A stretch of DNA of 64,000 bases, taken from NCBI GenBank assembly GCA_022710715.1, contig JAKLGJ010000001.1, positions 426,041 through 490,040 on the forward strand, given 5' to 3'. The DNA comes from Candidatus Omnitrophota bacterium (GTDB taxonomy: Bacteria; Omnitrophota; Gorgyraeia; Gygaellales; Profunditerraquicolaceae). The translations under genes and the position numbers were made by a program. The notes below the pieces were generated by a model that saw only the letters and a list, made by a program, of their open reading frames with translations, had not been told where the DNA came from and ran no database searches. Of this stretch, positions 12,489 through 61,185 are shown one piece after another. Each line of letters starts with the position of its first letter. Position 1 is the stretch's first letter.

Positions 12489-12492
12489 TGAA

Positions 12493-13317: not shown

Positions 13318-13325
13318 TCATACGG

Positions 13326-15011: not shown

Positions 15012-15026
15012 GCCGGATGACGATCT

Positions 15027-16229: not shown

Positions 16230-16250
16230 CCAAAGCCCGATAGACACAAG

Positions 16251-16279: not shown

Positions 16280-16288
16280 CAAGCAACT

Positions 16289-38341: not shown

Positions 38342-38843
38342 AGAGTTCCCGTATGCGGTTGAATATCCGGATATACTCTTGCGTTTGATAATCCGGATAG
38401 GTCCAGGTCCAGGGATGGAAACTTTTATCCTGGTAGTGCAGGGTGATCTCGGCGAAGATGCCTTTGTTGAGATGGATACGGTGAACGTAATCTTTCGTGG
38501 AAGCCAGCACCAGCTTGGCCAGGTCGACATAGCCCGGGTCGATGTTCACGGTGCGGTTGCGGCCTTCGCAAAAGGAGCTTTCGATCCTGTTGGTGATGAT
38601 TTTGATCTCGGAGAGTTTCTGGGAAGGGATGAGTTTTTTGAAGCTGACAAACGCGCGTTGGAGCGCAGCGCCGAATTCTTTCTCGTAATAGTGGGTCAGC
38701 GTGAACGGCAGGATGGCGCTTTCGTAATCGATTTCTCCAAATCGGCGGACGAGTTGTTGTCTGGCTCGCAGATAGAGCGTTTCTTGCTTGAAGATAAAAC
38801 CTGCGATCAGTTTAACAGGATCGGCTTTTTGTATGATTCCCAT
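38316..38843 (-). CDS. DUF4416 family protein (hypothetical)
   Basis: MGIIQKADPVKLIAGFIF..YYEKEFG resembles DUF4416. It overlaps the M48 start by 26 nt. Confidence 0.4.
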   Translation of the reverse strand: MGIIQKADPVKLIAGFIFKQETLYLRARQQLVRRFGEIDYESAILPFTLTHYYEKEFGAALQRAFVSFKKLIPSQKLSEIKIITNRIESSFCEGRNRTVNIDPGYVDLAKLVLASTKDYVHRIHLNKGIFAEITLHYQDKSFHPWTWTYPDYQTQEYIRIFNRIRELYALQIKQK

Positions 38844-46528: not shown

Positions 46529-46534
46529 GTCGGA

Positions 46535-48824: not shown

Positions 48825-49190
48825 TTAAGGATTGAGGGCTTTCATCACCACCTGTTCGAGCTCTTCGAGCTTTAACGGTTTGTGCACGTATCCGCAGGCG
48901 CCCAGTTGCACACAGGTGTTATAGGATTCGTTTTCTTCCGGCCGGGTGCCGGTGACCATCACCGCTTTGATCGTAGCATCCAGCTTTTTGATCGCTTCCA
49001 GGGTTTGGATCCCGTTCATCCCGCCCATGCGGATATCCAGCAGGACCAGGTCAGGGCGGTCTTCTTTGACTTTATTCAGCGCTTCTTCTCCGCTTCCTGC
49101 GGTGCGGGTGTCGATTTTTCGCTTGCGAAAGAAATTCGCGGCAAATTCCCGCACATCTTCCTCGTCGTCAACAATAAGCATTTTCGGCAT
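48825..49190 (-). CDS. Single-domain response regulator (CheY-like receiver)
   Basis: Contains the phospho-acceptor Asp (LVLLDIRMGGMNG) and a conserved Lys. Length is 121 aa. Confidence 0.8.
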   Translation of the reverse strand: MPKMLIVDDEEDVREFAANFFRKRKIDTRTAGSGEEALNKVKEDRPDLVLLDIRMGGMNGIQTLEAIKKLDATIKAVMVTGTRPEENESYNTCVQLGACGYVHKPLKLEELEQVVMKALNP

Positions 49191-49258: not shown

Positions 49259-51478
49259 TTATTGAGACGCAGCCGCTGTGTTCCCGTTGACCGCTAACGG
49301 CAGCTCAAGGATAAACCGCGTTCCCACCTTATGCTCCGATTCGAAATTGATCTTTCCCTGATGCGTCTCGGTAATGATATTCTTGATCACGTACAGGCCT
49401 AAACCGGTGCCTTTGCGTGAAGAAACCTTGGTGGTGAAAAACGGCGTAAAAAGCTTTTTGATGTCCTCGCTCTTCACGCCCATGCCGTTGTCCTGCACGA
49501 TGATCTCCATCATTTTTTCTTTGGGCCGCGCGGTAACGGTGATCTTGCCGCGGTAACCCGGCTCTTTCAAGGTCGTGCGCCGTTCCACCATGGAATCGTA
49601 GGCGTTATCGATAAAATTGAAGAACGCTTCTTCCAGCTGCACGAGGTTGCCTTTGATCTTCGGCAGGTCCTGGGGATAATTGCGGACCAGGTCGATCTCC
49701 TGCAGCTTGACTTTGTACTGGACCATGGTGATCGTTCCGTCGATGACCTGGTCGAGAGTCAGCGGCTCCAGGCCCTCGTCTCCTTTGCGGGTATACTTGA
49801 GGATGCCTTTGACCACTTCCCCTCCCTGCATGACATTGGACTGAATGCGTTCCAGCGCGGCGTTGATCTGTTTGATCATCTCCTGGATCTCGGGGGAGCA
49901 TTTGGAGGTGTCGGTCAGTTTGATGGTATCGATGGAGTCCCCGGCGATCAAAGAAAGGGCGTAAAAACGGTTGTTGATCTGATGCGATAAGCCGTCGGCC
50001 ATGGTGCCTACCGTAGCCATCTTCTCCGCTTGCGCGATCTGCGCCTGCATCTCTTTCGCTTCTTCATAGAACTGCGCGTTTTCGATCGCCAGCGCGGCTT
50101 GAGAAGCCAGGATCTGGAAGACATTGAGATCTTCGGGGGTATAGATCTGCCCGGATAGTTTATCGCCCAGCACCACAAAAGCGGTCAGTTTATTCTCCAG
50201 GAAACAGGGAATGACCACCGCGGCGTTGATCTTGCGCAGGTCCTGTTCCAGCAGCTTGAACGTGGCGTCGTTGGAATCCTGCATCTGGCGTTTGACTTCT
50301 TCGTAGACCACCGGTTGTTTTTTGGTGATCAACCAGGTGATCAGGGTATGATCGGCGGTCAGGGTGCGCGCCGGCTGTTCCCCGCGCGAGCGGTTCACCT
50401 GGAGAGCATATTCGTTGTTCTCTTCGCTGTGCAGATAGATCGCGGCGAAGCGGATACGCACGGTTTTGGTAATGATGTGCGCGATCAGGCTAAGCAGTTT
50501 GCGCAGGTTGCGGATACGGGTCATGCCGATCGCTGCGTGCTTGAGGGTATCCTGGTAGCGTTTCTGCTCGCGCAGCAACCTCTCTTCCGTCCTGCGCTGC
50601 AGGAAGATGTAAAAGAACGGTCCAATGGTGGCTAATGCGGCCATAAGAACCATAGGCAGAATCCACCAGTTAGCAGCTAATTTTGTTTCAAACCAGTTTC
50701 GATAGTAGCCGGCTAAAGCAAAAGGAAAGCCCAGTACTAGAGTATATACCGCTATAAAAAGTCCAGCGCGGGTTATTGCCAGTCGAATATCCAGGAGACG
50801 ATATTTGATTACAGCGTAAGTAATGATAAAAGGATAAATAGCCAGGAAGATATTGGAAAAGGGATACATGGGACTGCCAAAGACACTGGAATAGACGCCA
50901 TGCGGTCCCAACCAGCCGATAACTGAAGCAAGAATGAAATATTTTATTTGATTTCGAACAACGCCTTTTGAATGAATAAACTGGAGAATAAGCAAGGCAA
51001 ACGAGTAGGTAAGGAAAATCCAGTAGAAAAAGATGTAAAAAACAAGATAGAGAATGTTCTTTTTGATCGGCCAATAATGTAAATAAAATTCGTTAAATGA
51101 GAACCGTACATCACCCAGAAAGAGGTCGTGTCGGGGCAAGAAGTTTATCACTGTGAAAGCGATGCCTATGGTGTATGCCAGGATAAGAAGTAATTTAGCA
51201 TAACGCTGTTTAAGTTTAAGGAATGCATAGACGAAGTGATAATATACGACTGGAGTGAAGATGATACCGATGTGAGCTATCTGCCACCAGAAGAAAGCTT
51301 TGTCGGGTAGTTTTGCAGTTGAGAAACCGAACCCGCCAACGCCCCATAGGGCAATGAAAAAACAAAACAAAGCCCAAACATAGCTTAAACGTTTGTCTTT
51401 GCCTTTTATCAAAACGAGAACAATGAGTATTAAGCTGGAGATAATGACTATTAAAGATGAGAAACTGAATAGATTCAT
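49259..51478 (-). CDS. Sensor histidine kinase with N-terminal 7TM-receptor-like module, GAF, HisKA, HATPase
   Basis: About 7 N-terminal TM helices, an H-box (..DGLSHQINN..) and an ATPase G-box. It is paralogous to 59032-61185. Confidence 0.8.
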   Translation of the reverse strand: MNLFSFSSLIVIISSLILIVLVLIKGKDKRLSYVWALFCFFIALWGVGGFGFSTAKLPDKAFFWWQIAHIGIIFTPVVYYHFVYAFLKLKQRYAKLLLILAYTIGIAFTVINFLPRHDLFLGDVRFSFNEFYLHYWPIKKNILYLVFYIFFYWIFLTYSFALLILQFIHSKGVVRNQIKYFILASVIGWLGPHGVYSSVFGSPMYPFSNIFLAIYPFIITYAVIKYRLLDIRLAITRAGLFIAVYTLVLGFPFALAGYYRNWFETKLAANWWILPMVLMAALATIGPFFYIFLQRRTEERLLREQKRYQDTLKHAAIGMTRIRNLRKLLSLIAHIITKTVRIRFAAIYLHSEENNEYALQVNRSRGEQPARTLTADHTLITWLITKKQPVVYEEVKRQMQDSNDATFKLLEQDLRKINAAVVIPCFLENKLTAFVVLGDKLSGQIYTPEDLNVFQILASQAALAIENAQFYEEAKEMQAQIAQAEKMATVGTMADGLSHQINNRFYALSLIAGDSIDTIKLTDTSKCSPEIQEMIKQINAALERIQSNVMQGGEVVKGILKYTRKGDEGLEPLTLDQVIDGTITMVQYKVKLQEIDLVRNYPQDLPKIKGNLVQLEEAFFNFIDNAYDSMVERRTTLKEPGYRGKITVTARPKEKMMEIIVQDNGMGVKSEDIKKLFTPFFTTKVSSRKGTGLGLYVIKNIITETHQGKINFESEHKVGTRFILELPLAVNGNTAAASQ

Positions 51479-51484: not shown

Positions 51485-52057
51485 TTAGCTTATGGTAACT
51501 ACGGTATTCTTTTTTCTCGGGCTTCTTTTTCCTTTACTTAGAGGATAACCTAATGTTAAAACAGCGACCATTTCGTCCTTGATCTTCAGCAGCTTATTAA
51601 TTTCTTCTCGACAGAAAAGCGGCATATCTAGCCAACAAGTTCCGATCCCGAGATTCTCCGCTTCCAATAACATGTTTTGAATTGCCGCTGCAATAGCCGA
51701 AATTTCCGCCAGCTCAGCTTTTTTGAAGTATTCCTTGTTGAAGCGTTCGATAATTCCGGTGAAATCCTTGGTGTTATATACGCAGATCAATAATTTCGAA
51801 TTAGCCATTGTTTTTATGGTTGGATAAAGGAGAAACGTGGGCGTATTGATGTCTTCGAGTTTCTTTTCAACCATGCGATTGATTTTTTTTATCAAAGCCA
51901 CATTCTTGATTATTACGAATTTCCAGGGTTGAAAATGATGCAGCGCCGGTCCCCAAATACCCGCTTCGAGGATCTTTTTTAAAGCTGTTTGCGAAATCGG
52001 TTTGTTGGTATAGTGTCGTGTAGTGCTTCGTTGTTTCATCAGTTTAAGCACATCCAT
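51485..52057 (-). CDS. Nitroreductase-family flavoprotein
   Basis: RHYTNKPI...GPALHHFQPW is nitroreductase-like. Length is 190 aa. Confidence 0.6.
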   Translation of the reverse strand: MDVLKLMKQRSTTRHYTNKPISQTALKKILEAGIWGPALHHFQPWKFVIIKNVALIKKINRMVEKKLEDINTPTFLLYPTIKTMANSKLLICVYNTKDFTGIIERFNKEYFKKAELAEISAIAAAIQNMLLEAENLGIGTCWLDMPLFCREEINKLLKIKDEMVAVLTLGYPLSKGKRSPRKKNTVVTIS

Positions 52058-52066
52058 TTTTATTCC

Positions 52067-53176
52067 TCACCGTTTTTTCCGGGTTAAATAGAGCAATAAA
52101 CAATTTAATTTCTTAATCCCGTGAGATTGATACCTGAAACCGATGCGTCCTAAAAGTTGTACCGTTAAAACTCCGGAAAGTTTCAAATTAAAGTTAAGCG
52201 ACATGACGCTTCTTTTAAGAATATTTTTTTGAATGGGAGTTAACGCTATCGTTCTGAAAGCATCTGGTTGGATGCTGCGAGGATTTTTAAATTCCATTAA
52301 CTCGCTTGCTTTTTTTAGAATGGATGAGATTGAAACGTTTCCCGCCGGGAATATGTGGTAAGTTTTGTTGTCTCCAGGGGCTTTCTGGGAGATTATGTAC
52401 AGCGCCTTTACGGTATCATCGATAAAGACCAGATTTATCGAGAAGTTCAAGATTGGTAGAGCATCGAAAAGTTCGAGTTTGCACAGATTGAGGAATTGAT
52501 AGACATTCTTGAACTGGGAAATCTTGCCGGTGCGGGATTCTCCTACGACCATGGCAGGGCGAAAGATGTCAACCGTGAGCCTGTTCCTGTACGAATGTGC
52601 GAGTTGTTCGGCTTCGAATTTGCTCTGTTCGTACGTGGTATTGAACTTCTGTCCGACATCGAGGTCTGTTTCCCTGAAAATACCCTGATGGGTGCCGGCA
52701 ACATACGCGGTGCTGATGTGATTGACTTTGACCAGCGACGGGCAGGTGACGGCGAAGTCCAGCAAATTTTTTGTCCCGTGTACGTTGGTTTTGCGGATCT
52801 CTTCCAACGGCCGCCCGATTTCCGTAACTGCCGCCGAGTGGAATATTTCTTCGGTTTGCTTGCGCACGGTTGCGGCAACGGCCGCGTTCAATCCCAGTCG
52901 CGGTCCGGCGGTAATATCCCCCTCCACTACTACCAGATTGCGGCGGTGTCTGGACAGGACCTTTTTATCCCAGAACGCGAGGGCTTTCTCCACTCGCTGC
53001 CGGGCGGTTTCCTGCGCTTTGCCGCGGGCCAGGCAGAAAACTTTATGGCCGTTAAGCAGTAGTATTTTGAGCAGGTATGAGCCGATCAGCCCGGTGGCGC
53101 CGGTAAGCAGGACAGTCCTTTTGTGCGCCGAGCGGTGCCGGGTCATCCTGATTGTGCGAGGTGCGGATTTTTTCAT
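52067..53176 (-). CDS. NAD(P)-dependent reductase with NAD_binding_4 (thioester/fatty acyl reductase-like) domain
   Basis: TGATGLIGSYLL Rossmann motif and the YxxxK region. Confidence 0.55.
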   Translation of the reverse strand: MKKSAPRTIRMTRHRSAHKRTVLLTGATGLIGSYLLKILLLNGHKVFCLARGKAQETARQRVEKALAFWDKKVLSRHRRNLVVVEGDITAGPRLGLNAAVAATVRKQTEEIFHSAAVTEIGRPLEEIRKTNVHGTKNLLDFAVTCPSLVKVNHISTAYVAGTHQGIFRETDLDVGQKFNTTYEQSKFEAEQLAHSYRNRLTVDIFRPAMVVGESRTGKISQFKNVYQFLNLCKLELFDALPILNFSINLVFIDDTVKALYIISQKAPGDNKTYHIFPAGNVSISSILKKASELMEFKNPRSIQPDAFRTIALTPIQKNILKRSVMSLNFNLKLSGVLTVQLLGRIGFRYQSHGIKKLNCLLLYLTRKKR

Positions 53177-53619
53177 GATCTGGGTTTGATGCCGAAACCG
53201 ATACTGGCTTCGGCGACGACAGTCTCTCCTACTTTGGCTTTTGCTTCCACGATCCCGGTGTTGTTCAGGATCTTGACCGCTTCGATTTCGAAATCAACTG
53301 CGTCTCCCGGGAATACGGCCTGTTTGAATTTGACTTCCGCTTTGCCCAGGTAATACATGGGGTTCCGGGCGGCGATCTCCGGCTTGAGCGCGGCAAACAG
53401 GATAATGCTGGATTGAGCCATGGCTTCGGTCAGGATTACTCCGGGCACGACGGGATTGCCGGGGAAATGCCCGGCGAAGAAATAATCATTGATGGTGAAC
53501 AGTTTTCGACAGACGACTTTTCTTGCCGCAGTGTCGATAGCGGTGACCTTGTCGATAAACAAGAACGGATAGCGGTGGGGCAAAATCTCCTGAATGCGGT
53601 CGATATCCCAGGCGTCCAT
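53173..53619 (-). CDS. 3-hydroxyacyl-ACP dehydratase (FabZ/FabA hotdog family)
   Basis: ILPHRYPFLFIDKV and the catalytic His in GHFPGNPVVPGV. Confidence 0.75.
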   Translation of the reverse strand: MDAWDIDRIQEILPHRYPFLFIDKVTAIDTAARKVVCRKLFTINDYFFAGHFPGNPVVPGVILTEAMAQSSIILFAALKPEIAARNPMYYLGKAEVKFKQAVFPGDAVDFEIEAVKILNNTGIVEAKAKVGETVVAEASIGFGIKPRS

Positions 53620-53620
53620 A

Positions 53621-53869
53621 TTATTTGATCCGTTTTTCCAGTATCGCGTAAACGTCGTTAAGGCAGCGGATGGTGGGAATTTCCTCTTCCGGGATGCTGA
53701 TCTTGTATTTTTTCTCGATGCTGGCGACGATCTCCAGGGCCATCATGCTGTCCACTCCCAGGTCTTCCACGAATTTCGCATCTTCCTTGAGTTTGTCTTC
53801 GGGCAGCTCGGTGATCTCCGCGACCTTCTTTTTGACGTCCTTTTTGATCTCTTCGAAATTTGCCGCCAT
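53621..53869 (-). CDS. Acyl carrier protein
   Basis: The phosphopantetheine attachment motif is DLGVDSMMALEI. The start was moved to MAANFEEIKK (GGAGGG RBS). Confidence 0.75.
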   Translation of the reverse strand: MAANFEEIKKDVKKKVAEITELPEDKLKEDAKFVEDLGVDSMMALEIVASIEKKYKISIPEEEIPTIRCLNDVYAILEKRIK

Positions 53870-53895
53870 AACGTTAACCCTCCATGGTTGGTAAA

Positions 53896-55104
53896 CTATT
53901 CCTTGAACTTTTTGATGACCAGGCACGAGTTGTTGCCTCCGAAGGCAAACCCGTTGTTTAAAGCGATGTTGATTTTCTTCTTGCGCGCTTTATTCGGCAC
54001 GCAGTCCAGATCGCACTCGGGATCCGGGGTTTCATAGTTGATCGTCGGCGCGATGAGGTCTTCTTTGACCGTCAGGCAGCAACTGATCGCTTCCAGCGCC
54101 GACGCCGCGCCCATGGGGTGCCCGAGCATGGATTTGATCGAATTGATCGGGACCTGTTGCGCGCGTTCTTTGAGCACGTTTTTGATGGCAAGACATTCCA
54201 CTTTGTCGTTGGTGGGAGTGCCGGTGCCGTGCGTACAGATGAAATCCACATCTTTGTAGGTCAACCCGGTTTCCTGGAGGGCTTTTTCCATGACTCTGGT
54301 CACACCTCTGGGATCCGGCGCAGTGGCGTGGTAAGCGTCGCAGGACAATCCGTATCCGAGGATTTCAGCGTAGATCCTGGCGTTGCGTTTTACCGCGGAA
54401 TCGAGGCTTTCCAGAAGGAGTATGCCTGCTCCTTCGCCGAGCATCATGCCTTTGCGGTTTTTGTCGAACGGTTGACAGCGGTCCTGGGCCATGGCGTACA
54501 GACTCTGGAATCCCACGAAAGCGACATAGAAGAACGCGTCGGCCCCTCCGGCAAAGGCAAAGTCCAGTTCGCCGCTTTTGATCAGGTCAAAGCCGTAGCC
54601 GATAGCGTAATTGCCGGCGGCGCAGGCGGTGGGAAACATGTAATTTGCCCCCTGGGTTTTCAGGTGTAACGCTACATTTGCCGAGAGGTTGTTCACCGAA
54701 GCCTGAAGTATGCGGATGCGGTCGAGGTCTTTCAATCCTCCCTGCACCCAGGTGCGGATCAGCTCTTCCAGGGGTTTTTCTCCCATGGTCGTGCCCATGA
54801 ATACGCCGGTGCGCGTTTTGGGCAGCGTTCCGACGCCGGCGTCCTCCTGCGCCAGGAGCGCAGCGGAGATCGCCAACTGCGAAGCCCTGCCCAGGAATTT
54901 GAGCTTGCGCTGCTGAATGAACTCTTCGGGTTTGAATGGCTTGGCTTCCCCTCCCCGGTGGCATTTGAAACCGGAAGTGTCGAAGGCGGTGATTTCGCTG
55001 ATGCCGGACGTGCCGGCGGTCAGCGCTCTCCAGAAATCTTTTCTGCCGACGCCGATCGATGAAACCGGCCCCAATCCCGTGACGACTACGCGATGATTAT
55101 TCAT
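53896..55104 (-). CDS. Beta-ketoacyl-ACP synthase (FabF/KAS II-like, catalytically complete KS)
   Basis: Active-site Cys in PTACAAGNYAIG, His residues in ICTHGTGTP and MLGHPMGAAS, and C-terminal NNGFAFGGNNSCLVI. Confidence 0.85.
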   Translation of the reverse strand: MNNHRVVVTGLGPVSSIGVGRKDFWRALTAGTSGISEITAFDTSGFKCHRGGEAKPFKPEEFIQQRKLKFLGRASQLAISAALLAQEDAGVGTLPKTRTGVFMGTTMGEKPLEELIRTWVQGGLKDLDRIRILQASVNNLSANVALHLKTQGANYMFPTACAAGNYAIGYGFDLIKSGELDFAFAGGADAFFYVAFVGFQSLYAMAQDRCQPFDKNRKGMMLGEGAGILLLESLDSAVKRNARIYAEILGYGLSCDAYHATAPDPRGVTRVMEKALQETGLTYKDVDFICTHGTGTPTNDKVECLAIKNVLKERAQQVPINSIKSMLGHPMGAASALEAISCCLTVKEDLIAPTINYETPDPECDLDCVPNKARKKKINIALNNGFAFGGNNSCLVIKKFKE

Positions 55105-55573
55105 GTATTTTATAGGGTTTTATCCTGAACGTTTCAGTGGTTTCCATGACGCCGTCGCCGAAAGACCGTGCGTCGAATCTCTCTTTAACCCGGATCAACG
55201 CTGTCCCCTCTTCTATTCCGACCAGCGTGTAGGTGATAAATGCGTGATGGCCGTCCGAGAGCATGCAAGCCTGATCTTTGCGCAGCGTGATCTGGTTATG
55301 ATCGTCTCCCGGCGTTACCAGGTTGCCTTCAGCCATCTGCCAGAAAAACAACCCGTATCCGGGAATTTGCTTTTCGGCGTCTTCGCTGTAATTTGCGTCT
55401 ACCAGAGAAACGGAATCATCCGCATTCACGCGCAGTTCGGCAATGCCCCAGAGTCGTCCGGTTTTCTTCATATAATCGATATCGCCGTTATACTCCGGCT
55501 GCTGCGCGAGTGCCGCGCAGGAAATGGCGCCGTAGAATAAGGTTATGAGGATCCTCGCGAATACGGTACGCAT
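55097..55573 (-). CDS. Small secreted protein (hypothetical; possible lipid-carrier role inferred from context only)
   Basis: N-terminal signal peptide and 158 aa. It is embedded between the two KS genes with overlapping stop and start codons. Confidence 0.4.
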   Translation of the reverse strand: MRTVFARILITLFYGAISCAALAQQPEYNGDIDYMKKTGRLWGIAELRVNADDSVSLVDANYSEDAEKQIPGYGLFFWQMAEGNLVTPGDDHNQITLRKDQACMLSDGHHAFITYTLVGIEEGTALIRVKERFDARSFGDGVMETTETFRIKPYKIHE

Positions 55574-55577
55574 GCGT

Positions 55578-56801
55578 TTACCTGCTGATAATGGCCGCGG
55601 CGTTATTGCCGCCCGGACCGAAATTGTTCACCAGCACCGTGTTGATCTTTTTCTGCCTGGCCTGATTGGGTACGTAATCGAGGTCGCAGACCGGGTCGAT
55701 CTCCCGGTAATTGATCGTCGGTGGAATAAAACCCTGCTGGATCGAGCCGATCCCCGCGGCGATCTGCAATAATCCGGAAGCGCTGACCGTTTCTCCCAGC
55801 ATGGATTTTGTCGCGCTGACCGGGATGCGCGCCGCCTGCGCGCCGAAGACCTCTTTGATCACCGCGGTTTCGATCGCATCCTGATGGACCACGGAGTTGG
55901 CGGTGGCGCAGATGTAATCGAGTTTTTCCGGCGCCAGCCGGGCATTCTGCATGGCTTCGCTGATAGAACGTTTCAATCCTACGGCTTTCGGGTTATATTT
56001 ACCGCTGCGGAATGGATCGAAGAAGCTTTCTACAGCCGCTACCCGGGCGTAGATTGTCGCGCCGCGCGACCGGGCGAATTCCTCGTCTTCCACCACCAAC
56101 ACGCATGAGCCTTCCCCCAGGATGATGCCGTTTCGACGTTTGTCGAAGGGGCAGGATAGTTCCTCTCCTTTGATCCCCGCCAGGAACTCGAGTTTATAAA
56201 AGCCGACAAAGGTTTGAAAGAACAGCGATTCAACGGCAGCAACCAGCACGGCTTTGCTGCGGCCGGATTTGATCATATCCACGGAATATTTCAGAGCGTC
56301 GAGGCTGGCGGAATAGCCGGTCGAGACGGTGGCGTTGAAGCCTTTGATCCCGAAACGGATGGCGAGCTGGCTTGACGGCGAGTTGATCGTGGTGCCGGGA
56401 AACATCGCCGGGTTGACGTATTGCGGCCCTTCCTGCGCGGCGTCTTTGGTGAATTGAGAAATATTGAAAATGACGGACAGGGTGGTTGCGGTGGTTACTC
56501 CGACATCGTCGGTATTGTTTTCGCCGATCTGGAGACCGGCGTCGTCAATGGCGAGTTTGGTAGCCGAACACAGCAATCTGGTGCTGCGGTCCATATTGCG
56601 CAGACCTTTGGAGCCGAGAAATCGCTCCGCCTCGAAATCCGCGATCTCTCCGGCGGTGTGCGCTTTGAAAAAAGCGGTTTCGAACACGCTGATCGGCCGT
56701 ATGCCGGACGTTCCTTCGCGCAGGGCTTTCCAGTAGTTTTCTTTGCCGATGCCGTTGGGAGCGATGACTCCGATCCCGGTTATGACAGGTTGCGCGTTCA
56801 T
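55578..56801 (-). CDS. KS-like chain-length-factor-type partner (beta-ketoacyl synthase fold lacking the Cys/His/His triad)
   Basis: The active-site position reads VSTGYSASLD, with Cys replaced. The HGTGT and GH motifs are replaced by TANSVV and LGETVSAS. Confidence 0.65.
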   Translation of the reverse strand: MNAQPVITGIGVIAPNGIGKENYWKALREGTSGIRPISVFETAFFKAHTAGEIADFEAERFLGSKGLRNMDRSTRLLCSATKLAIDDAGLQIGENNTDDVGVTTATTLSVIFNISQFTKDAAQEGPQYVNPAMFPGTTINSPSSQLAIRFGIKGFNATVSTGYSASLDALKYSVDMIKSGRSKAVLVAAVESLFFQTFVGFYKLEFLAGIKGEELSCPFDKRRNGIILGEGSCVLVVEDEEFARSRGATIYARVAAVESFFDPFRSGKYNPKAVGLKRSISEAMQNARLAPEKLDYICATANSVVHQDAIETAVIKEVFGAQAARIPVSATKSMLGETVSASGLLQIAAGIGSIQQGFIPPTINYREIDPVCDLDYVPNQARQKKINTVLVNNFGPGGNNAAAIISR

Positions 56802-57544
56802 GAGATGCTTAAGCCTCCGTCCATCACGATCACCTGCCCGGTGATATATCCCGCCCGTTCGCTGATGAGGAATTGTACCGCTTTGGCTACCTCTTCCGGT
56901 TTGCCGAATCGTCCCAGGGGGATCTTTGCGTTGAGTTTGGCTCTCAAGTCGTCTTTCAGCTGGCCGACCATATCCGTTTCGATGAACCCCGGGGCCACGG
57001 CGTTGACCCGGATACCATACGCCGCAACTTCCTTGGCCAGCGCTTTGGTGAAACCGATGATCCCGGCTTTCGAGGCGGCATAATTGGTTTGCCGCGGCAT
57101 GCCCACCACTCCGGTAACCGAGGAAATGTTGACGATCTGTCCGGATTTCTGCTTGAGCAGCGTCATGATCGCCGCCCGGGATAAATTGATCGTGCCGATA
57201 AGGTTGGTGTTGATGACTTCCAACCAGTCTTCGGGCGCCATCATAGCCAGGGCTTTGTCCCGGATGATCCCGGCATTATTGATCACGATATCCAGCCCGC
57301 CGAACGTTTCTTTGGATTTGTTGACCCAATCCGCTACCGCGCCGAAGTCTTTGATATCCGACTGGAAAGCTTTGGCGCAGCTGCCCAGAGCGGCGATCTC
57401 TTTTTCCAGGTCCAGGGCTTCGTTAACACTTTTGAGATAGTTAAAGCTGATCTTTGCGCCCTGGCGGGCGAGTTCCAGGGCAATGGCTTTGCCGATGCCG
57501 CGGGTCGCTCCGCTGATAATCGCAGTTTTTCCTTTCAGGGTCAT
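56798..57544 (-). CDS. fabG: 3-oxoacyl-ACP reductase (FabG, SDR family)
   Basis: GATRGIGKAIA, NNAGI, and the S..YxASK catalytic motif. Confidence 0.85.
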   Translation of the reverse strand: MTLKGKTAIISGATRGIGKAIALELARQGAKISFNYLKSVNEALDLEKEIAALGSCAKAFQSDIKDFGAVADWVNKSKETFGGLDIVINNAGIIRDKALAMMAPEDWLEVINTNLIGTINLSRAAIMTLLKQKSGQIVNISSVTGVVGMPRQTNYAASKAGIIGFTKALAKEVAAYGIRVNAVAPGFIETDMVGQLKDDLRAKLNAKIPLGRFGKPEEVAKAVQFLISERAGYITGQVIVMDGGLSIS

Positions 57545-57915
57545 GTGAGATTTTTCTTAACTGCGCCGATAAATTCGTCGGTGCTGAAGGGTTTATAAAT
57601 AAATCCGGCGACTTTGAGCTCCAGGGCGTTTTTCAGGCTTGCTTCTTCGACAAAGCCGGTGATCAATACTTCCGGAATAGGCTGTTTTCCGGCGTTGTTG
57701 CGCAGTTCCCGGATCTTCTTGAGCGTTTCGATGCCGTTCATGCCCGGCATTTTGATATCGGAAACAATCAAGTCGAAGTCCTGATTTTTGACCAGTTCCA
57801 CCGCTTGTTCGCCGTTAGCGGCAATAGTTGCGGATAAGCCTTCTTTTTTAAGCAGTTTCTGCAGGCTTTTGGTGATCAGATGATCATCATCAACAATGAG
57901 GATCTGTTTTTCCAT
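57541..57915 (-). CDS. Single-domain response regulator (receiver)
   Basis: DLIVSDIKMPGMNG. Its start overlaps the fabG stop. Confidence 0.75.
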   Translation of the reverse strand: MEKQILIVDDDHLITKSLQKLLKKEGLSATIAANGEQAVELVKNQDFDLIVSDIKMPGMNGIETLKKIRELRNNAGKQPIPEVLITGFVEEASLKNALELKVAGFIYKPFSTDEFIGAVKKNLT

Positions 57916-58175
57916 ATCCTTGCTCCTGTTTGAGTTGCGAGTCTTATTATACCAGAAAACCCGGATTCGTGTTACAATTTTCGCCGGAGCGAAAATTTTA
58001 TGTAATAAGCCTGGACAGGCGTTGGAAAGTGTGGGATACTGCTCGTTTATAAATCACCGTATTTCGTACTTAACCATCCCCCGCGCAGATCGCACCTAAC
58101 GCTAATAAGGAATTGCGTTAGTGTGGCCCTGTGGCCAAATTGCGTTAGGGTTCCGCTCGTGCGGAAGGAGGTTCT

Positions 58176-58655
58176 ATGTTGAAAGCTAAAACCGGCGATA
58201 CCGTCAAAGTGCATTATGTGGGAACCATCGAGAACAATGTCGTATTCGACGATTCGTATCAACGCAAACAGCCTATGGAATTCAAGATCGGCGCAAATAT
58301 GCTCATCCAGAAGTTCGAAGATACCGTCGTAGGTATGTCGATCGGCGAAAAACGCACGGTGAACATCCCTTCAGACGAAGCTTACGGTCCGCACAAGAAA
58401 GAAATGGTGGTTACTGTCCCCCGCAATCAACTGCCGGCTGATATTCAACCGGTGGTTGGAATGCAACTGCAGGTGAGCCAGGATGAACAGGTTTTTGCGG
58501 TGACCATAGCCGAGGTCACCGACACCACGCTTTCTCTGGACGCCAATCATCCGTTGGCCGGAAAAGACCTCACCTTCAACATCGAGCTGGTGGAGATCCT
58601 GCCTCCGGGAACCGAATGCCACGGGTCTTCCTGTTCCTGCGGCGGGCATCATTAA
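58176..58655 (+). CDS. slyD: FKBP-type peptidyl-prolyl isomerase SlyD with His/Cys-rich metal-binding tail
   Basis: FKBP core plus an IF domain. C-terminus CHGSSCSCGGHH. Confidence 0.8.
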   Translation: MLKAKTGDTVKVHYVGTIENNVVFDDSYQRKQPMEFKIGANMLIQKFEDTVVGMSIGEKRTVNIPSDEAYGPHKKEMVVTVPRNQLPADIQPVVGMQLQVSQDEQVFAVTIAEVTDTTLSLDANHPLAGKDLTFNIELVEILPPGTECHGSSCSCGGHH

Positions 58656-59026
58656 GTCAGGCACCGTTCCACCGCTGCCATGAATTCCCCGATATCGAAA
58701 GGCTTATAGATATACGCCGCTACCTGCATCTCCTGCGCTTCTTTTTGTAAATCGTCAGAAGCGTATCCGGTAATGATGATCTCTTGGGGATGCGCGCGTC
58801 CCTGAAGGGAATTGATCTCTCTGATCTTGCGGATAGCTTCCAGGCCGTTCATTTCCGGCATGCGGATATCCGCAACGATCAGATCAAAAGCCAGCCGCTG
58901 CGCCAGCGCGATCGCGGTTTTGCCGCTGTCCGCGGATTCCACCTCATACCCTTTGACTTTCAGGTATTTGACGATGCTTTTGGTCACCAGTACGTCGTCG
59001 TCAATTACCAGGATTTTTTTTGCCAT
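58652..59026 (-). CDS. Single-domain response regulator (receiver)
   Basis: FDLIVADIRMPEMNG. Paralogous to 48825 and 57541. Confidence 0.75.
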   Translation of the reverse strand: MAKKILVIDDDVLVTKSIVKYLKVKGYEVESADSGKTAIALAQRLAFDLIVADIRMPEMNGLEAIRKIREINSLQGRAHPQEIIITGYASDDLQKEAQEMQVAAYIYKPFDIGEFMAAVERCLT

Positions 59027-59031: not shown

Positions 59032-61185
59032 TTATTTTTTTGCCCGGGGAATATCGATGGTGACGATGGTTCCCTTGCCGGTTTTCGATTTCACACGGAT
59101 CATGCCGTGATGCTTGTCGATGATCGACTGGCAGATGGATAGTCCCAGCCCCAGTCCTTTTCCCACTTCTTTGGTGGTGAAAAAGGGATCGAATATCCTC
59201 CCGATGATCTCCTGCGGGATACCCCCTCCTTCGTCTTTGATGGAAACGTTCACCCAGTTTTGATCCTGGCTTAGTTCGATTTCGATGGTTCCATCCGGTC
59301 TGATTTGTTTGATGGCGTCGCGGGCATTAAGCAACACATTGGTGATCACCTGTTCCATTTCGTTATGATTGCCCCGGATCGGGTAGTTTTTGTCAGGAGC
59401 GTTGAGCACGGTTTTCACATTATCCTGCTCGAACTGGAATTTGAGGAACGAAACGGCGGTCGTGATCACGTCCAGCAGATTGAAATCGTACACCATCGTG
59501 GTTTCCAGCGGTTTCTTGGAGTACGTCATCAATTTCTGGACGATGATCTTGCAGCGTTTAGTGGCTTCTTCGATGATCTCCAGCGATTCTTTGGTATCGG
59601 CGTCAAGGTTTTCGCAGACCGCCAGCAGCATCTGGGCGTTGGTCAGGATCGCGGTCAGCGGATTATTGATCTCGTGCGCCACGCCTCCGGCCAGCGTGCC
59701 GATGGTGGCCAGTTTTTCCGCCTGCACCAGTTGTTTTTGCACGTCCATCAGTTGTTGGGTGCGCTGCTTGACCTGGTTTTCCATATTCTGGTACAGTGCA
59801 GCGTTCTCGATGGCCAGAGATATCTGGTTGGCCAGAACGGAAAAAACAGCCAGGTCATCCGGTTGGTAGGTATCTCCCCCGGCTTTGTCGCCGAGTATCA
59901 GCAGGTTTGCCAGCCGGTTTTCCAGGAAGCTGGGAACGATCAGCGTCGCTTTCAACGCCTGCATCTCCTGCGCGATATCATTGAACGGGGTGCCGGGGTT
60001 CTCTTCGGCTTTTCGATTGATTTCCTCTCGTATCAGAGGTTCTTTCAGATTTTCTATAAAGGTGATCAACGGGTTGGTCTGTGCGATTTCCGGGGGCTGG
60101 TCGGCGTACATATGATGACCGGCCAGGAGTATAAAAGAGTTTTTCGGAGTATCCCAGGTGTAGAGCGCTGCGTGCGAGACGTGGATGGTTTCGGCGATAG
60201 TCTCGAAAATGAACTCGGTCAGTTGTTCCAGGTTGCGGATGCGCGTCATTTCTGCAGCCGCAGAGCGCAGCGTTTCCCGGTAAGCGCGTTGTTTGCGCAG
60301 CAAAATGGCTTCCGCTCTTTTCTGCAGGTTGATGTAGACGAACGGTCCGATAGTCGCCAGGAACATCAAAAGAGTCAGCGGCGCCAGCCACCAGTTAGGC
60401 CCTAACAGGTGCATCAGCCAGTTTTTGCCGATGGTCACCAGCACCAGCGGGACGCCCAGTACGATTGCGTAGACGGCGGTAAATATCCCGGTGCGGGTGA
60501 TGACCGCGTTGATCGCCATCAGCCGGTAGCGCAGAATGGCAAAAGTGATCAGCAGCGGATAAAAAACGAACAGGATGATCGGGTACGGCAGCAGGGGAAT
60601 ATTAAAGGCCAGGCCGAAGGTGCTCCCTCCCCCGATAAACCCGAATAACGAAGCGATGGCGACGTACTGGATCTGGAGGAATTTTTCTTTTCCTTTTGTG
60701 CCCGCTGATCGCAGCAAGAGCAGCAGCCCATACGTGGGCACAACCGCGAAATACGCCACAAAGAGCGCGGCCAGGGGGCCCAGGTCATCATAGAATCTGA
60801 ACATGGCTTTCGCGGTCACATCCTTGATGAACCAGTGGCTGGACAGCAGGCTCAAGAAGATCACGCTGCCGATCAGGGCCAGGAGTAAATGTTTTTTGTG
60901 GCCGGAAACGGCGTTCAAGAGGGCGAAAACGAAATACAGGTAGCAGACGGGAATGAGGATTGCGCTGGCGTAGAGAATGTAAGCGAACCGCCAGGCCAGA
61001 TTGTAATCGGGCGTGACCGCCATGATGAAGTGGCTTACGCTCCAGGTGCCGGCAGTCAGGGAAAGCAAGAACCAGGATTTATTGACGGAAGAACGGCTGT
61101 TCTTAAAAAGTACCCAGACGCCGCTGACGTAGCAGGCCAGGGCTCCGAGCAGGAAACTGATCGAAAAATAATTGATGGCGTTCAT
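59032..61185 (-). CDS. Sensor histidine kinase with 7TM-receptor-like N-terminus, GAF, HisKA, HATPase
   Basis: H-box HEINNPL, G-boxes DEGGGI and GKGLGLGL, and N-terminal multi-TM region. Paralogous to 49259-51478. Confidence 0.8.
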   Translation of the reverse strand: MNAINYFSISFLLGALACYVSGVWVLFKNSRSSVNKSWFLLSLTAGTWSVSHFIMAVTPDYNLAWRFAYILYASAILIPVCYLYFVFALLNAVSGHKKHLLLALIGSVIFLSLLSSHWFIKDVTAKAMFRFYDDLGPLAALFVAYFAVVPTYGLLLLLRSAGTKGKEKFLQIQYVAIASLFGFIGGGSTFGLAFNIPLLPYPIILFVFYPLLITFAILRYRLMAINAVITRTGIFTAVYAIVLGVPLVLVTIGKNWLMHLLGPNWWLAPLTLLMFLATIGPFVYINLQKRAEAILLRKQRAYRETLRSAAAEMTRIRNLEQLTEFIFETIAETIHVSHAALYTWDTPKNSFILLAGHHMYADQPPEIAQTNPLITFIENLKEPLIREEINRKAEENPGTPFNDIAQEMQALKATLIVPSFLENRLANLLILGDKAGGDTYQPDDLAVFSVLANQISLAIENAALYQNMENQVKQRTQQLMDVQKQLVQAEKLATIGTLAGGVAHEINNPLTAILTNAQMLLAVCENLDADTKESLEIIEEATKRCKIIVQKLMTYSKKPLETTMVYDFNLLDVITTAVSFLKFQFEQDNVKTVLNAPDKNYPIRGNHNEMEQVITNVLLNARDAIKQIRPDGTIEIELSQDQNWVNVSIKDEGGGIPQEIIGRIFDPFFTTKEVGKGLGLGLSICQSIIDKHHGMIRVKSKTGKGTIVTIDIPRAKK

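Follow-up and report, generated by a model that had tools for sequence, protein, structure and literature searches.

Gene content of the locus

The window, which is the whole 64,000-nucleotide stretch of Candidatus Omnitrophota DNA that was analyzed, carries eight closely packed genes on the minus strand at 51485–57544. All eight ORFs were confirmed at these coordinates and in these families; in order, they encode a FabG-like KR, a KS-like protein with a dead active site (dead KS, CLF-like), a small signal-peptide protein, a complete KS, an ACP, a FabZ-like DH, an MxaA-type thioester reductase, and a nitroreductase (Table 1). An earlier note, made from the sequence alone, had given the same composition, which is borne out by both the ORF coordinates and the family matches, and had stated that all junctions overlap or are shorter than 30 nt. 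The distances computed from the ORF coordinates (in order, −4, −4, +4, −8, +26, +1, −4, and +9 nt) agree, with a range of −8 to +26 nt. At the head of the operon lies a receiver gene (RR2), whose stop and the KR start share a 4-nt overlap. The promoter candidate upstream of this gene has 10 of 12 consensus matches and an extended TG, which is a consensus match only, and sigma-70-like sites are not in excess across the region (five found versus 7.1 expected). For the ACP, four public assemblies call the start at the ATG at 53869, which is probably the true one and gives 82 aa. Occurrence across related loci was counted in 35 complete loci, 28 of which have an adjacent KS (KS and ACP).

Table 1. 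Features of the cluster and its surroundings, in order of decreasing coordinate
Feature	Position in window	Strand	Family match or motif
SRPBCC and acyl-ACP-reductase-like protein, C-terminal part of 513 aa	62690..64000	-	Polyketide_cyc2/SRPBCC and Rossmann domain
497-aa protein, lineage-specific	61200..62693	-	no family match
HK_A, 7TM-GAF histidine kinase	59032..61185	-	HisKA_7TM, GAF, HATPase; HK_B paralogue
RR1, stand-alone receiver	58652..59026	-	Response_reg 2e-25
Sigma-70-like promoter candidate	57946..57975	-	GTAACA-18-TATAAT; upstream of receiver gene heading operon
RR2, stand-alone response-regulator receiver, operon head	57541..57915	-	Response_reg 1.9e-28
KR, FabG-like 3-oxoacyl-ACP reductase	56798..57544	-	adh_short_C2 2e-68
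Dead KS (CLF-like), amxFabFmut orthologue	55578..56801	-	ketoacyl-synt 4e-35 and C-terminal domain 7e-22
158-aa protein between CLF and KS	55097..55573	-	N-terminal hydrophobic signal-like segment
Active KS, amxFabF2 orthologue	53896..55104	-	TACAAG, HGTGT, GHP motifs
ACP, dedicated, amxACP-like, 82 aa	53621..53869	-	PP-binding 7e-13; DSM phosphopantetheine site
DH, FabZ-type dehydratase, amxFabZ tunnel signature	53173..53619	-	FabA/FabZ 1e-24; catalytic His and Glu present
Stand-alone thioester reductase (NAD_binding_4 family)	52067..53176	-	NAD_binding_4 7e-50
Nitroreductase-family flavoprotein	51485..52057	-	Nitroreductase 1.9e-27
HK_B, 7TM-GAF histidine kinase	49259..51478	-	HisKA_7TM 4e-16, GAF, HATPase_c
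RR3, stand-alone receiver	48825..49190	-	Response_reg 4e-28
GAF-HD-GYP protein, putative c-di-GMP phosphodiesterase	47658..48821	-	HD_5 9e-37 and GAF
GT28 diglucosyl-DAG-synthase-like, LpxL-like acyltransferase, and GT2 genes	45018..47656	-	co-directional

The operon is flanked by signaling genes. The two 7TM-GAF kinases, previously described as paralogous, are indeed full-length paralogues (32% identity, E = 4e-117), and the HK_B gene lies 6 nt downstream of the nitroreductase gene. Of the 28 complete loci with an adjacent KS, 26 adjoin a 7TM kinase, and the order HK–RR–KR–CLF is repeated in related Omnitrophota loci. The GAF-HD-GYP protein matches the NosR-family c-di-GMP phosphodiesterase model at 128 bits, below its cutoff, and its gene occurs in 12 of the 35 complete loci. 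Farther upstream, the 513-aa SRPBCC/acyl-ACP-reductase-like gene runs past the window edge (it is whole at 2571–4112 of L001, the window locus) and belongs to an upstream accessory operon. Its product matches TIGR04058, long-chain acyl-ACP reductase, at 147 bits, below the cutoff of 450, and the gene is accompanied by a PlsC/Aas-like acyltransferase in 10–11 of the 35 complete loci. The adjacent 497-aa protein has no Pfam or NCBIfam match, and its gene was found in one complete locus. Downstream, the glycosyltransferase and acyltransferase genes at 45018–47656 had been proposed as possible members of the same pathway; their membership is doubtful, given that they are syntenic in three loci only (L001, L018, and L022).

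The KS and dead-KS pair

In the dead KS, the motifs at the Cys, His1, and His2 positions are VSTGYSASLD, CATANSVV, and MLGETV, respectively, exactly as the earlier note gave them when it described a KS-like protein without the catalytic Cys and both His. The Cys/His/His triad was absent from the window protein and from all of its homologues (0 of 87), and was present in all 62 partner KS proteins and all 18 third-KS proteins. The top PDB match of the dead KS was amxFabFmut (9s5h_C; 361 bits, versus 249 for the best FabF; 45.5% identity), and that of the active KS was amxFabF2 (9s5h_B; 475 bits, versus 342 for Iga11 and 307 for the best FabF; 55.6% identity). Identities of both window proteins to canonical FabFs were 31–40%. 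In a neighbor-joining tree, the Omnitrophota/Nitrospirota dead-KS clade, with amxFabFmut nested inside it, was recovered in 200 of 200 bootstraps, and the active-KS clade containing amxFabF2 was recovered in 127 of 200. The two anammox proteins form a KS/CLF-like heterodimer, for which malonyl-ACP decarboxylation and a preference for C6–C8 have been reported (2026 preprint 10.64898/2026.05.19.726425). The proposed pairing of an active KS with an inactive partner is real and conserved, with orthologues of known structure that form such a heterodimer.

The other core and accessory proteins

The dedicated ACP, the KR, and the DH named in the earlier note were borne out. The KR, which was found in 34 of the 35 complete loci, exceeded the cutoff of the FabG subfamily NF009466 (260.6 versus 222 bits) and fell just under that of TIGR01830 FabG (293.2 versus 297.75 bits). 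The DH exceeded the FabZ cutoff (NF000582; 138 versus 113 bits) and the active KS passed the FabF-subfamily threshold, so that to an annotation pipeline these three proteins resemble ordinary FAS parts. The ACP fell short of every NCBIfam ACP cutoff; its top PDB matches were the amxACP chains 9s5i_E, 7auf_A, and 7qv0_D (57–59 bits, versus 44 for the next). Similarly, the top PDB matches of the DH were the amxFabZ structures 8ayb and 7qv0_A (119 bits, versus 105 for canonical FabZ). The window DH has Ile at the position of amxFabZ Ile69, where canonical FabZ has Gly, and Leu at the position of Ile115; at position 96 it has Lys, as in canonical FabZ, so that one of the three signature positions is canonical-like. 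The residue at Ile69 has been tied to a preference for chains of up to C6–C8 (PMC10139942). Among 54 DHs from loci whose KS is adjacent, 53 have Ile, Leu, or Val here; where no KS is adjacent, the DHs mostly have a small residue instead (13 of 17 carry Ala or Cys).

The thioester-reductase-like enzyme is genuinely of that type. Its best solved match was the reductase (R) domain of MxaA (4u7w), and its TGATGLIG (NAD(P)) and YEQSK (YxxxK) motifs are intact, although it scored under the cutoff of TIGR01746 (145 versus 213 bits). It occurs in 13 of the 35 complete loci, never alongside a third KS, and in locus L092 it is embedded within the core, between the CLF and the KR. The nitroreductase had generic PDB matches only and was found in seven complete loci, six of which also have the reductase; loci L010 and L092 carry it as well. 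Given these low frequencies, neither enzyme belongs to the core. The 158-aa protein, called secreted in the earlier note, has an N-terminal signal-like segment. It is a lineage-specific insertion, unconserved across loci, with no Pfam or NCBIfam match.

Distribution across genomes

The core of KR, CLF, ACP, DH, and KS was found in at least 269 species genomes across the Omnitrophota and the Thermodesulfovibrionia; Nitrospirota are among its carriers. The accessory genes vary between loci and comprise the reductase, the nitroreductase, a phytoene-desaturase-like gene, and a third KS. The desaturase-like flavoprotein is encoded in 19 of 35 related loci and has no counterpart in the window. In seven of the 35 complete loci, a CLF–KR–DH trio lies among riboflavin, nusB, and ligA genes, without a kinase. 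About 85 loci were covered, and none had a FabD, FabH, or FabI homologue within 10 kb. Nor was any recurrent radical-SAM family linked to the cluster; a CxxxCxxC (radical-SAM-type) ORF within 4 kb was present in only one of 87 loci, 4 kb away on the opposite strand.

Proposed function and alternative readings

With a probability of roughly 60%, we consider the operon to be a dedicated type II synthase of the anammox "Cluster I" type, which makes an unusual acyl-ACP that is released reductively and routed to membrane lipids. Its closest solved relatives, for the KS, dead KS, ACP, and DH alike, are the Cluster I proteins amxFabF2, amxFabFmut, amxACP, and amxFabZ. By homology to these characterized proteins, the active and dead KS would form a KS/CLF-like heterodimer that primes by malonyl-ACP decarboxylation and elongates on the cluster's own ACP, and the dead subunit would set the chain-length preference. 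Each round would be processed by the KR and by a DH whose substrate tunnel is predicted to be narrowed by the Ile at the canonical Gly position, whereas malonyl transfer (FabD) and any enoyl reduction would be supplied from elsewhere in the genome. The product is likely not a bulk C16–18 fatty acid but an acyl-ACP of short or medium chain length, or one that is unusual in another way and possibly unsaturated; this expectation of chain length draws on in vitro work with the anammox orthologues, whose identity to the window proteins is 45–56%. In the variant found in the window, the MxaA-type reductase may release the product as an aldehyde or alcohol, and the nitroreductase might perform some redox step on it. 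The neighboring Aas/PlsC-like acyltransferase and acyl-ACP-reductase-like genes might route the chain into a membrane lipid, such as an alkyl or acyl glycerolipid. Expression or flux might conceivably be coupled to the embedded 7TM-GAF kinases, receivers, and HD-GYP protein.

A different reading is that the operon is the housekeeping FAS of Omnitrophota, or an essential part of it, in which the KS/CLF pair takes over initiation from FabH by decarboxylating malonyl-ACP and the KR, DH, and ACP serve as the general FabG, FabZ, and AcpP of the cell. The wide conservation of the core, the FAS-like scores of the KR, KS, and DH, the trios among riboflavin, nusB, and ligA genes, and the small DH residues where no KS is adjacent are consistent with this, as is the ability of the anammox heterodimer to initiate synthesis. 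In the KO lists of Seymour et al. (2023), which record presence or absence only and for three Omnitrophota genomes, FabD, FabG, FabZ, ACP, and Acc occur in all three genomes, FabH in one, and FabI/FabK in none. However, the tunnel-blocking Ile of the DH, with its limit of about C8, is hard to reconcile with C14–C18 and lipid A chains, and the ACP lies below every equivalog cutoff and closest to amxACP. Moreover, anammox bacteria have a canonical fabF-acpP-fabD-fabH set alongside the orthologous cluster, and the variable accessory genes, reductive release, and embedded two-component system fit a specialized pathway. We thus regard a housekeeping role as unlikely. More improbable still is that the operon encodes a highly reducing type II PKS resembling the Iga system of ishigamide (Iga10–13/16). 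Such a system, having no enoyl reductase, would make a conjugated polyenoyl-ACP that the reductase would release as a polyenal or polyenol. Instead of a saturated chain, the product would be a reactive lipid head, a signal, or a pigment. The operon shares the gene set of the Iga system (KS/CLF, ACP, KR, and DH, with no ER), Iga11 was the second-best solved match of the active KS (43.6% identity), no FabI homologue lies near any locus, the phytoene-desaturase-like flavoprotein is frequent in related loci, and polyunsaturated intermediates have been proposed for related clusters (Rattray et al. 2009). On the other hand, the KS groups with amxFabF2 and not with Iga11 in the neighbor-joining tree, the authors who characterized the anammox system treated it as fatty-acid-like, an enoyl reductase could act in trans, and the window itself lacks the desaturase-like gene.

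The resemblance to type II PKS and aryl-polyene systems raised in the earlier note holds for the KS/CLF pair and fails for the aryl-polyene part; the nearest relatives are the FAS-like Cluster I proteins of anammox bacteria. An aryl-polyene or flexirubin-type pigment cluster would share with the operon the KS/CLF pair, KR, FabZ-like DH, and ACP; the precomputed Pfam matches of the DH include ApeP-like and ApeI-like, and the KR matches the FlxB model, albeit under its cutoff (247 versus 340 bits). LpxL-like acyltransferase and GT2 genes also lie downstream of the operon, as they do in APE clusters, but their limited synteny weakens this parallel. Neither KS had the ApeO/ApeC structures (7F28 and 6QSP) among its 60 best PDB matches, the active KS matched ApeR (7f27 and 4ewg) at only 183–191 bits compared with 475 for amxFabF2, and the operon has no gene for an aryl-AMP ligase (aryl starter), a second DH, a thioesterase, a methyltransferase, or LolA/MMPL export. 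A pigment cluster of this kind is accordingly very improbable. A ladderane lipid cluster would be the reading suggested by an antiSMASH "ladderane" call; clusters so named have been reported from Omnitrophota MAGs, and four of the proteins here are orthologous to proteins of the putative ladderane Cluster I. We reject it, leaving it almost no credence, because 86 of 87 loci have no radical-SAM-type ORF within 4 kb; in addition, the window carries no desaturase-like gene, ladderane lipids are known from anammox Brocadiia only, and Nitrospirota carry the same core. The occurrence in Omnitrophota of the KS/dead-KS pair of the putative anammox ladderane cluster means that this core machinery is not confined to organisms that make ladderanes.

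Organization of the operon and its surroundings

The operon consists of eight ORFs, all on the minus strand, whose families were assigned with Pfam and NCBIfam scans. Its genes, together with the other features of the window that are discussed here, are listed in the following table.

Positions of the operon genes and of other features of the window
Feature	Position	Strand	Description
Operon	51485-57544	minus	eight ORFs
KR	56798-57544	minus	FabG-like reductase
Dead KS	55578-56801	minus	KS-fold (CLF-like), 407 aa
Small protein	55097-55573	minus	158 aa, without family match
KS	53896-55104	minus	complete KS
ACP	53621-53869	minus	82 aa, as called in public assemblies
DH	53173-53619	minus	FabZ-type dehydratase
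Reductase	52067-53176	minus	NAD_binding_4 thioester reductase
Nitroreductase	51485-52057	minus	Nitroreductase family
Receiver	57541-57915		stand-alone receiver gene
FKBP-type isomerase	58176-58655	plus	FKBP-type peptidyl-prolyl isomerase
497-aa protein	61200-62693		soluble protein upstream of the operon
Acyl-ACP-reductase-like paralogue	62690 to beyond 64000		L001:2571-4112
Acyl-ACP-reductase-like paralogue	L001:964-1965		past the window edge
Large ORF	2470-8079		1869 aa
Secretion and pilus genes	8599-17101		type II secretion/type IV pilus set and exosortase EpsH
Ligase operon	34551-38530	minus	ligase, radical-SAM gene, M48 peptidase
FadD-like ligase	35038-36600	minus	long-chain fatty-acid-CoA ligase
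Radical-SAM gene	36597-37577	minus	326 aa

The earlier note had described a complete KS together with a KS-like protein lacking the catalytic Cys and both His, in an operon whose junctions all overlap or span fewer than 30 nt. Translation of both KS proteins bore out the motif reading, the dead KS having VSTGYSASLD, CATANSVV, and MLGETV where the KS has TACAAG, HGTGT, and LGHPMG, and at the junctions the genes indeed overlapped by at most 8 nt or were separated by at most 26 nt. The catalytic His and Glu are retained in the DH, as are the TGxxGxxG and YxxxK motifs in the reductase. The identical dead-KS sequence is present on 13 public contigs, including a 1.62-Mb JGI contig and the NCBI MAG GCA_035914815.1.

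The stand-alone receiver gene overlaps the start of the KR gene and has a promoter-like site just upstream of it. It was the one plausible promoter found by the promoter and terminator scan, which showed no enrichment over shuffles. Downstream of the operon, on the same strand, are genes for a 7TM-GAF histidine kinase, a receiver, a GAF-HD-GYP protein, a GT28 glycolipid-synthase-like protein, an LpxL-like acyltransferase, and a GT2 protein. Upstream are a second 7TM-GAF kinase and receiver, then the 497-aa protein, and then an SRPBCC domain fused to an acyl-ACP-reductase-like domain. The two flanking kinases, which had been called paralogous, share 32% identity and can be regarded as such. Past the upstream edge of the window lie genes for an Aas/PlsC-like acyltransferase, a second acyl-ACP-reductase-like protein, and an HTH_17 regulator. 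No fab genes were found elsewhere in the window, the remainder of which encodes secretion and pilus components, an exosortase, sigma-54, a TonB receptor, and a FadD-like ligase accompanied by a small radical-SAM protein.

The FKBP-type isomerase gene separates the upstream kinase–receiver pair from the receiver that heads the operon, an arrangement observed only in the window's lineage. The 497-aa protein, for which there were no Pfam or NCBIfam matches, was also found only in this lineage among the examined loci. Both acyl-ACP-reductase-like paralogues of the window's own locus (L001) resemble cyanobacterial acyl-ACP reductase and the PigE N-terminal domain, with scores below the cutoff; one is fused to the SRPBCC lipid-binding domain, and the pair flanks the Aas/PlsC-like acyltransferase. 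Together with the NAD_binding_4 enzyme, they make three candidate thioester reductases at the locus.

Relationship to the anammox Cluster I proteins

Anammox Cluster I (Kuenenia KustE3603-3608; Granatino et al. bioRxiv 2026; Dietl et al. JBC 2023) encodes amxACP, amxFabZ, amxFabF2, amxFabFmut, a phytoene-dehydrogenase-like protein, and a B12 radical SAM enzyme. According to a preprint of May 2026 (10.64898/2026.05.19.726425), amxFabF2 and the triad-less amxFabFmut form a KS/CLF-like heterodimer (structures 9S5H and 9S5I); malonyl-amxACP was decarboxylated only by the two proteins together, and both favored C6–C8 probes and preferred amxACP.

Sequence searches with the operon proteins were run against all PDB chains, with the PDB sequences rebuilt from printed alignments. 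The top match of the dead KS was 9s5h_C at 361 bits, followed at 249 bits by a canonical FabF, and that of the KS was 9s5h_B at 475 bits, followed by Iga11 (342 bits) and FabF (307 bits). For the DH, the top matches were amxFabZ 8ayb and 7qv0_A, with a modest margin (119 bits vs 105 for the next), and the three best matches of the ACP were all amxACP chains (9s5i_E, 7auf_A, and 7qv0_D; 57–59 bits vs 44 for the next). The ACP also scored under every canonical ACP/AcpP cutoff of NCBIfam. In BLASTP, the KS was 55.6% identical to amxFabF2 and the dead KS 45.5% identical to amxFabFmut, with canonical FabFs at 31–40%. In a neighbor-joining tree built from a limited sample (50 sequences, 200 bootstraps), the dead-KS homologues and amxFabFmut formed a clade in 200 of 200 bootstraps, with the anammox protein nested inside, and the KS homologues grouped with amxFabF2 in 127 of 200. 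On these sequence relationships, we regard four operon proteins (the KS, dead KS, ACP, and DH) as orthologous to the putative ladderane proteins of Cluster I.

The JBC 2023 paper (PMC10139942) defined three signature positions of amxFabZ, namely a bulky Ile at the canonical tunnel Gly (69), a hydrophobic residue at 115, and Ser/Thr at 96. When aligned to 7qv0_A, the window DH, like amxFabZ, had Ile at the Ile69 equivalent (the tunnel Gly in canonical FabZ), and it had Leu at the Ile115 equivalent (Arg or Lys in canonical FabZ), but its Lys at position 96 is the same as in canonical FabZ and unlike the amxFabZ signature. An I69G variant of amxFabZ has been tested for the acceptance of longer substrates. 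In both Cluster I and the operon, the gene for the dead KS lies upstream of that for the active one, and amxFabFmut and the window dead KS have both lost Cys/His/His while keeping the Lys and carrying Glu at His2. Neither encodes FabD, FabH, or an enoyl reductase (ER). They differ in the B12 radical-SAM gene, a Cluster I feature without a counterpart in the operon or at any related locus, and in the desaturase-like gene, which is missing from the operon but present in 19 of 35 relatives. Unlike Cluster I, the operon includes a KR gene, an MxaA-type thioester reductase, a nitroreductase, and a lineage-specific secreted protein, has a two-component/HD-GYP module embedded in its locus, and belongs to a non-anammox Omnitrophota bacterium.

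We rejected the operon as a full ladderane cluster because no cobalamin-dependent radical-SAM gene is linked to it. Among the 87 loci, a CxxxCxxC ORF was found within 4 kb of the cluster at only one, on the opposite strand and 4 kb away, and no recurrent radical-SAM family was found. The only radical-SAM gene of the window is 14 kb off in a separate operon, and a phytoene-dehydrogenase-like flavoprotein is absent from the operon and its flanks. In 2023, antiSMASH 'ladderane' calls were reported for Omnitrophota MAGs without an explanation.

Distribution and gene content of related loci

When one genome per GTDB species was scanned, relatives of the dead KS were encoded in 269 genomes, of which the best 80 loci were examined. 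These 80 were mostly from Omnitrophota, among them Ca. Velamenicoccus archaeovorus LiM, whose genome is complete (NZ_CP019384, with the cluster at about 757-763 kb), and the rest came from Nitrospirota/Thermodesulfovibrionia, some MAGs labelled Planctomycetia, and one Desantisbacteria MAG (the taxon labels of some MAGs are doubtful). ORFs were called mechanically in all fetched loci (numbered L001 and so on) and assigned by BLASTP to reference proteins. The pairing of an active KS with a catalytically dead one, claimed earlier for the window, extended to the relatives: the triad was absent from 87 of 87 dead-KS homologues and intact in 62 of 62 partner KSs, as well as in all 18 copies of an additional, third KS. 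Gene presence was counted in the 35 loci with full flanks.

Gene presence in the 35 loci with full flanks
Gene	Loci
KR	34/35
DH	32/35
KS plus ACP	28/35
Histidine kinase	26/35
Phytoene-desaturase-like flavoprotein	19/35
Thioester reductase	13/35
HD-GYP	12/35
SRPBCC-reductase-like protein	11/35
Aas-like acyltransferase	10/35
Third KS	9/35
Nitroreductase	7/35

All 26 kinase-bearing loci belonged to the 28 having the KS and ACP. L091 and L092 were further ordinary clusters; in L092, the reductase gene lies between the dead KS and KR genes, and the nitroreductase gene between two desaturase-like genes. Because they are embedded in this cluster, the reductase and nitroreductase count as true members of it, albeit optional ones. 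At none of the 35 loci did the reductase co-occur with the third KS, which suggests alternative fates of the product, either further extension or reductive release. The third KS (433–441 aa; L008, L009, L016, L019, L022, L024, L027, and others; for example L009:10443-11768) has a divergent N-terminal half and formed its own clade in 200 of 200 bootstraps.

The 158-aa protein was confined to the window's lineage, and its homologues elsewhere were unlinked to KS genes; it is predicted to be a beta-sandwich, without a match to any known fold. Mobile or defense-type genes were inserted within the clusters of relatives, as in L010, with an AbiEii/AbiEi toxin–antitoxin pair between the DH and reductase genes (L010:13484-14729), and L008, with a 23S_rRNA_IVP protein encoded between the ACP and DH (L008:11592-11939). 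The 158-aa insertion in the window fits the same pattern.

Seven of the 35 loci contained the dead KS, KR, and DH genes among riboflavin, nusB, and DNA-ligase genes, without a KS, ACP, or kinase gene nearby. The tunnel residue was Ala or Cys in 13 of 17 DHs without an adjacent KS, and Ile, Leu, or Val in 53 of 54 DHs with one. The partner KS and ACP of these dead KS–KR–DH-only Omnitrophota must be encoded elsewhere; a homologue search with the V. archaeovorus KS returned no match from their contigs. The lineage is represented by L044, L045, L051, L053, L061, L070, L073, L077, L081, L083, L084, L087, and L088. Its riboflavin–nusB–ligA context was annotated in L045, and the same flanking gene families recurred in 13–14 loci.

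Two further gene associations were observed upstream of the clusters. In L068 (7278-9248) and 11 other Velamenicoccia loci, the HTH_17–CLF cluster is immediately preceded by genes for a dihydrolipoamide-dehydrogenase-like protein and a lipoyl (octanoyl) ligase/transferase. This adjacency is suggestive, given the anammox C6–C8 preference and the role of octanoyl-ACP as a lipoate precursor, and may be coincidental synteny. Eight loci, most of them from Nitrospirota (L026, L034, L041, L078, L085, L086, L089, and L090; for example L078:7558-9000), encode upstream of the cluster members of a family that has a SAM-dependent methyltransferase domain, with a median length of 373 aa and a representative of 480 aa. 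An anammox SAM methyltransferase interacting with ACPs is described in PMC9821293.

Comparison with other systems containing deviant ketosynthases

The aryl-polyene (APE)-like reading put forward in the earlier note did not hold. The ApeO/ApeC chains 7F28 and 6QSP were outside the best 60 PDB matches of both KS proteins, and ApeO/ApeC were far more distant from the window pair than canonical FabF. ApeR (7f27, 4ewg) scored 183–191 bits with the KS and 123–128 bits with the dead KS, below the canonical FabFs. APE clusters (ApeO/ApeC, ApeR, ApeI/P, ApeQ, ApeE/F) follow the same logic of a KS with a dead partner, KR, FabZ-like DH, and dedicated ACP, and resemble the operon as a Gram-negative lipid-associated pathway; however, their aryl-starter, thioesterase, methyltransferase, and export genes are missing here. 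An ApeH-type ligase, a second dehydratase, a thioesterase, and LolA/MMPL-type export genes were all absent from the operon and its flanks, in which the DH count was one.

An aromatic type II PKS (KS-alpha/CLF) was likewise rejected. The Cys position of the dead KS is occupied by Gly or a neighboring Tyr/Phe, never by the Gln that replaces the Cys in aromatic CLFs, and the actinorhodin KS and CLF scored 230 and 164 bits, below the FabFs. Such PKSs also have cyclase/aromatase genes, and the sole SRPBCC domain here was the one fused to the acyl-ACP-reductase-like domain upstream. Natural proteins of ~800 aa in which an active and a triad-less KS are fused, with either of the two coming first, were common in the representative library (P0258, P0264, P0265, P0266, and P0270). 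These fusions were dropped as Rosetta-stone evidence, since both halves matched the query only at the general FabF level, and they therefore represent a different KS–CLF lineage.

FabF paralogues without the triad were described in FASII-like clusters of Desulfotalea psychrophila, Geobacter, and Pelobacter by Rattray et al. (2009), who proposed a role in an unidentified anaerobic route to unsaturated lipids. In these non-anammox anaerobes, compared here by description, the deviant FabFs are encoded next to phytoene-desaturase-like genes, and the clusters include radical-SAM and phenylacetyl-CoA-ligase-like genes, unlike the window operon.

Proposed function and alternative explanations

By orthology to the characterized anammox proteins, the KS and dead KS would form a heterodimer that primes via malonyl-ACP decarboxylation and then elongates on the dedicated ACP. 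Each round would be processed by the KR and the tunnel-restricted DH, with FabD and any ER acting in trans. We infer that the product is a short, medium, or otherwise unusual chain and not a bulk fatty acid from three features, namely the Ile in the DH tunnel, the divergence of the ACP, and the preference for C6–C8 shown by both anammox enzymes. The reductase is of the R-domain type, and its best solved match is the R domain of myxalamid MxaA, which produces a primary alcohol; the enzyme is therefore naturally read as releasing the product reductively, in the form of an aldehyde or alcohol. The PDB matches of the nitroreductase were generic only. Entry of the chain into a membrane lipid is suggested by the genes upstream, which encode the Aas-like acyltransferase and both acyl-ACP-reductase-like proteins, and the conservation of the kinases, receivers, and HD-GYP protein as neighbors supports a coupling of lipid synthesis to regulation by this embedded module.

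The operon might instead be the housekeeping FAS, or its initiation module, which we consider unlikely. The cluster is broadly conserved, its KR, KS, and DH score like ordinary FabG, FabF, and FabZ, and some loci stand in a housekeeping gene context, but the tunnel signature of the DH, the divergent ACP, the variable accessory genes, and the reductive release all speak against this explanation, and in Kuenenia the orthologous cluster coexists with a canonical FAS. The absence of FabH from two and of FabI/FabK from all three of the Omnitrophota KO lists of Seymour et al. also favors a housekeeping role, these lists covering three genomes by presence or absence and being uninformative on copy number. 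No FabD, FabH, or FabI homologues were found within 10 kb at about 85 loci with E. coli queries, which shows only that such genes are unlinked.

An ER-less system could also make a conjugated polyene, like the ishigamide highly reducing type II PKS (Iga11/Iga12 KS/CLF, Iga10 ACP, KR, and DH; PDB 6KXD-F), which has the same component list and likewise lacks an ER. Among solved structures, Iga11 ranks second as a match of the window KS, with 43.6% identity, but the KS groups with amxFabF2 and not with Iga11, and the top PDB matches of the dead KS do not include Iga12. In Streptomyces, the Iga system yields an amide-linked polyene, whereas release in the window would be by the reductase.

Implications for ladderane and Omnitrophota lipid synthesis

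Beyond the function proposed for the operon, a wider reading, to which we assign a probability of about 0.2, is that the amx module is not a ladderane invention but an old short-chain KS/CLF synthase, widespread in anaerobic PVC-group and Nitrospirota bacteria and used for initiation in FabH-poor Omnitrophota. In the latter, the module would carry out the initiation and early elongation of lipid synthesis via malonyl-ACP decarboxylation and pass its product to the third KS for extension or to the thioester reductase for alcohol or ether-lipid formation, with the membrane-embedded 7TM kinases in control. Anammox ladderane synthesis would then have arisen by the addition of a B12 radical-SAM enzyme to the module.

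Ladderane biosynthesis is a long-standing unsolved problem, and to our knowledge, anammox organisms are not amenable to genetic manipulation. The anammox papers call Cluster I anammox-specific or unique to ladderane producers. The present locus and its more than 260 relatives contradict this specificity, the KS/CLF pair, special ACP, and tunnel-restricted FabZ being shared with non-anammox Omnitrophota and Thermodesulfovibrionia that have no radical-SAM gene in the cluster. The comparison separates the shared core from ladderane-specific additions and leaves the radical-SAM enzyme, perhaps along with the desaturase-like one, as the step specific to ladderanes. A large comparative set is also gained for working out the product of the core module, which could be sought by lipidomics in Ca. 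Velamenicoccus archaeovorus, with its complete genome and its enrichment culture together with Methanosaeta.

For Omnitrophota, the locus points to a possible non-canonical route of fatty-acid initiation in a major uncultured phylum and flags a link, conserved among the relatives, between lipid synthesis and signaling by 7TM sensor kinases and c-di-GMP. It is not discussed in the two large Omnitrophota genome papers that we searched. Deviant FabF paralogues in non-anammox anaerobes have been known since 2009; what is new here is an amx-type KS/CLF core without a radical-SAM gene, with a thioester-reductase terminus, and wired to 7TM kinases.

Possible ether-lipid genes and the remainder of the window

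We know of no ether lipids from Omnitrophota. In a Black Sea study (PMC11868695), 93 of 267 Omnitrophota MAGs were reported to carry homologues of the ether-lipid protein ElbD. Myxobacterial ElbD combines a CoA ligase, ACP, thioester reductase, and AGPAT, whereas here these functions are split over separate proteins. The R domains of ElbD and MxaA and the window reductase all belong to the NAD_binding_4 family and would act on a carrier-protein-bound acyl chain, and the PlsC/Aas-like acyltransferase encoded near the operon is a likeness to the ElbD AGPAT. The FadD-like ligase of the window is an equally likely source of the Omnitrophota ElbD matches. It is encoded in a separate operon as a long-chain fatty-acid-CoA ligase (NF004837, 510 bits, cutoff 476), with which the radical-SAM gene, itself without an NCBIfam match, overlaps by 4 nt, followed by the M48 peptidase gene. 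This ligase could explain the reported ElbD matches or reflect fatty-acid scavenging. In the first part of the window, the large ORF is followed by the secretion and pilus set, which comprises a PilN-like protein, a secretin, an ATPase, and a platform protein, and the gene content of this region (2470-17101) fits the surface-attachment lifestyle proposed for Omnitrophota.
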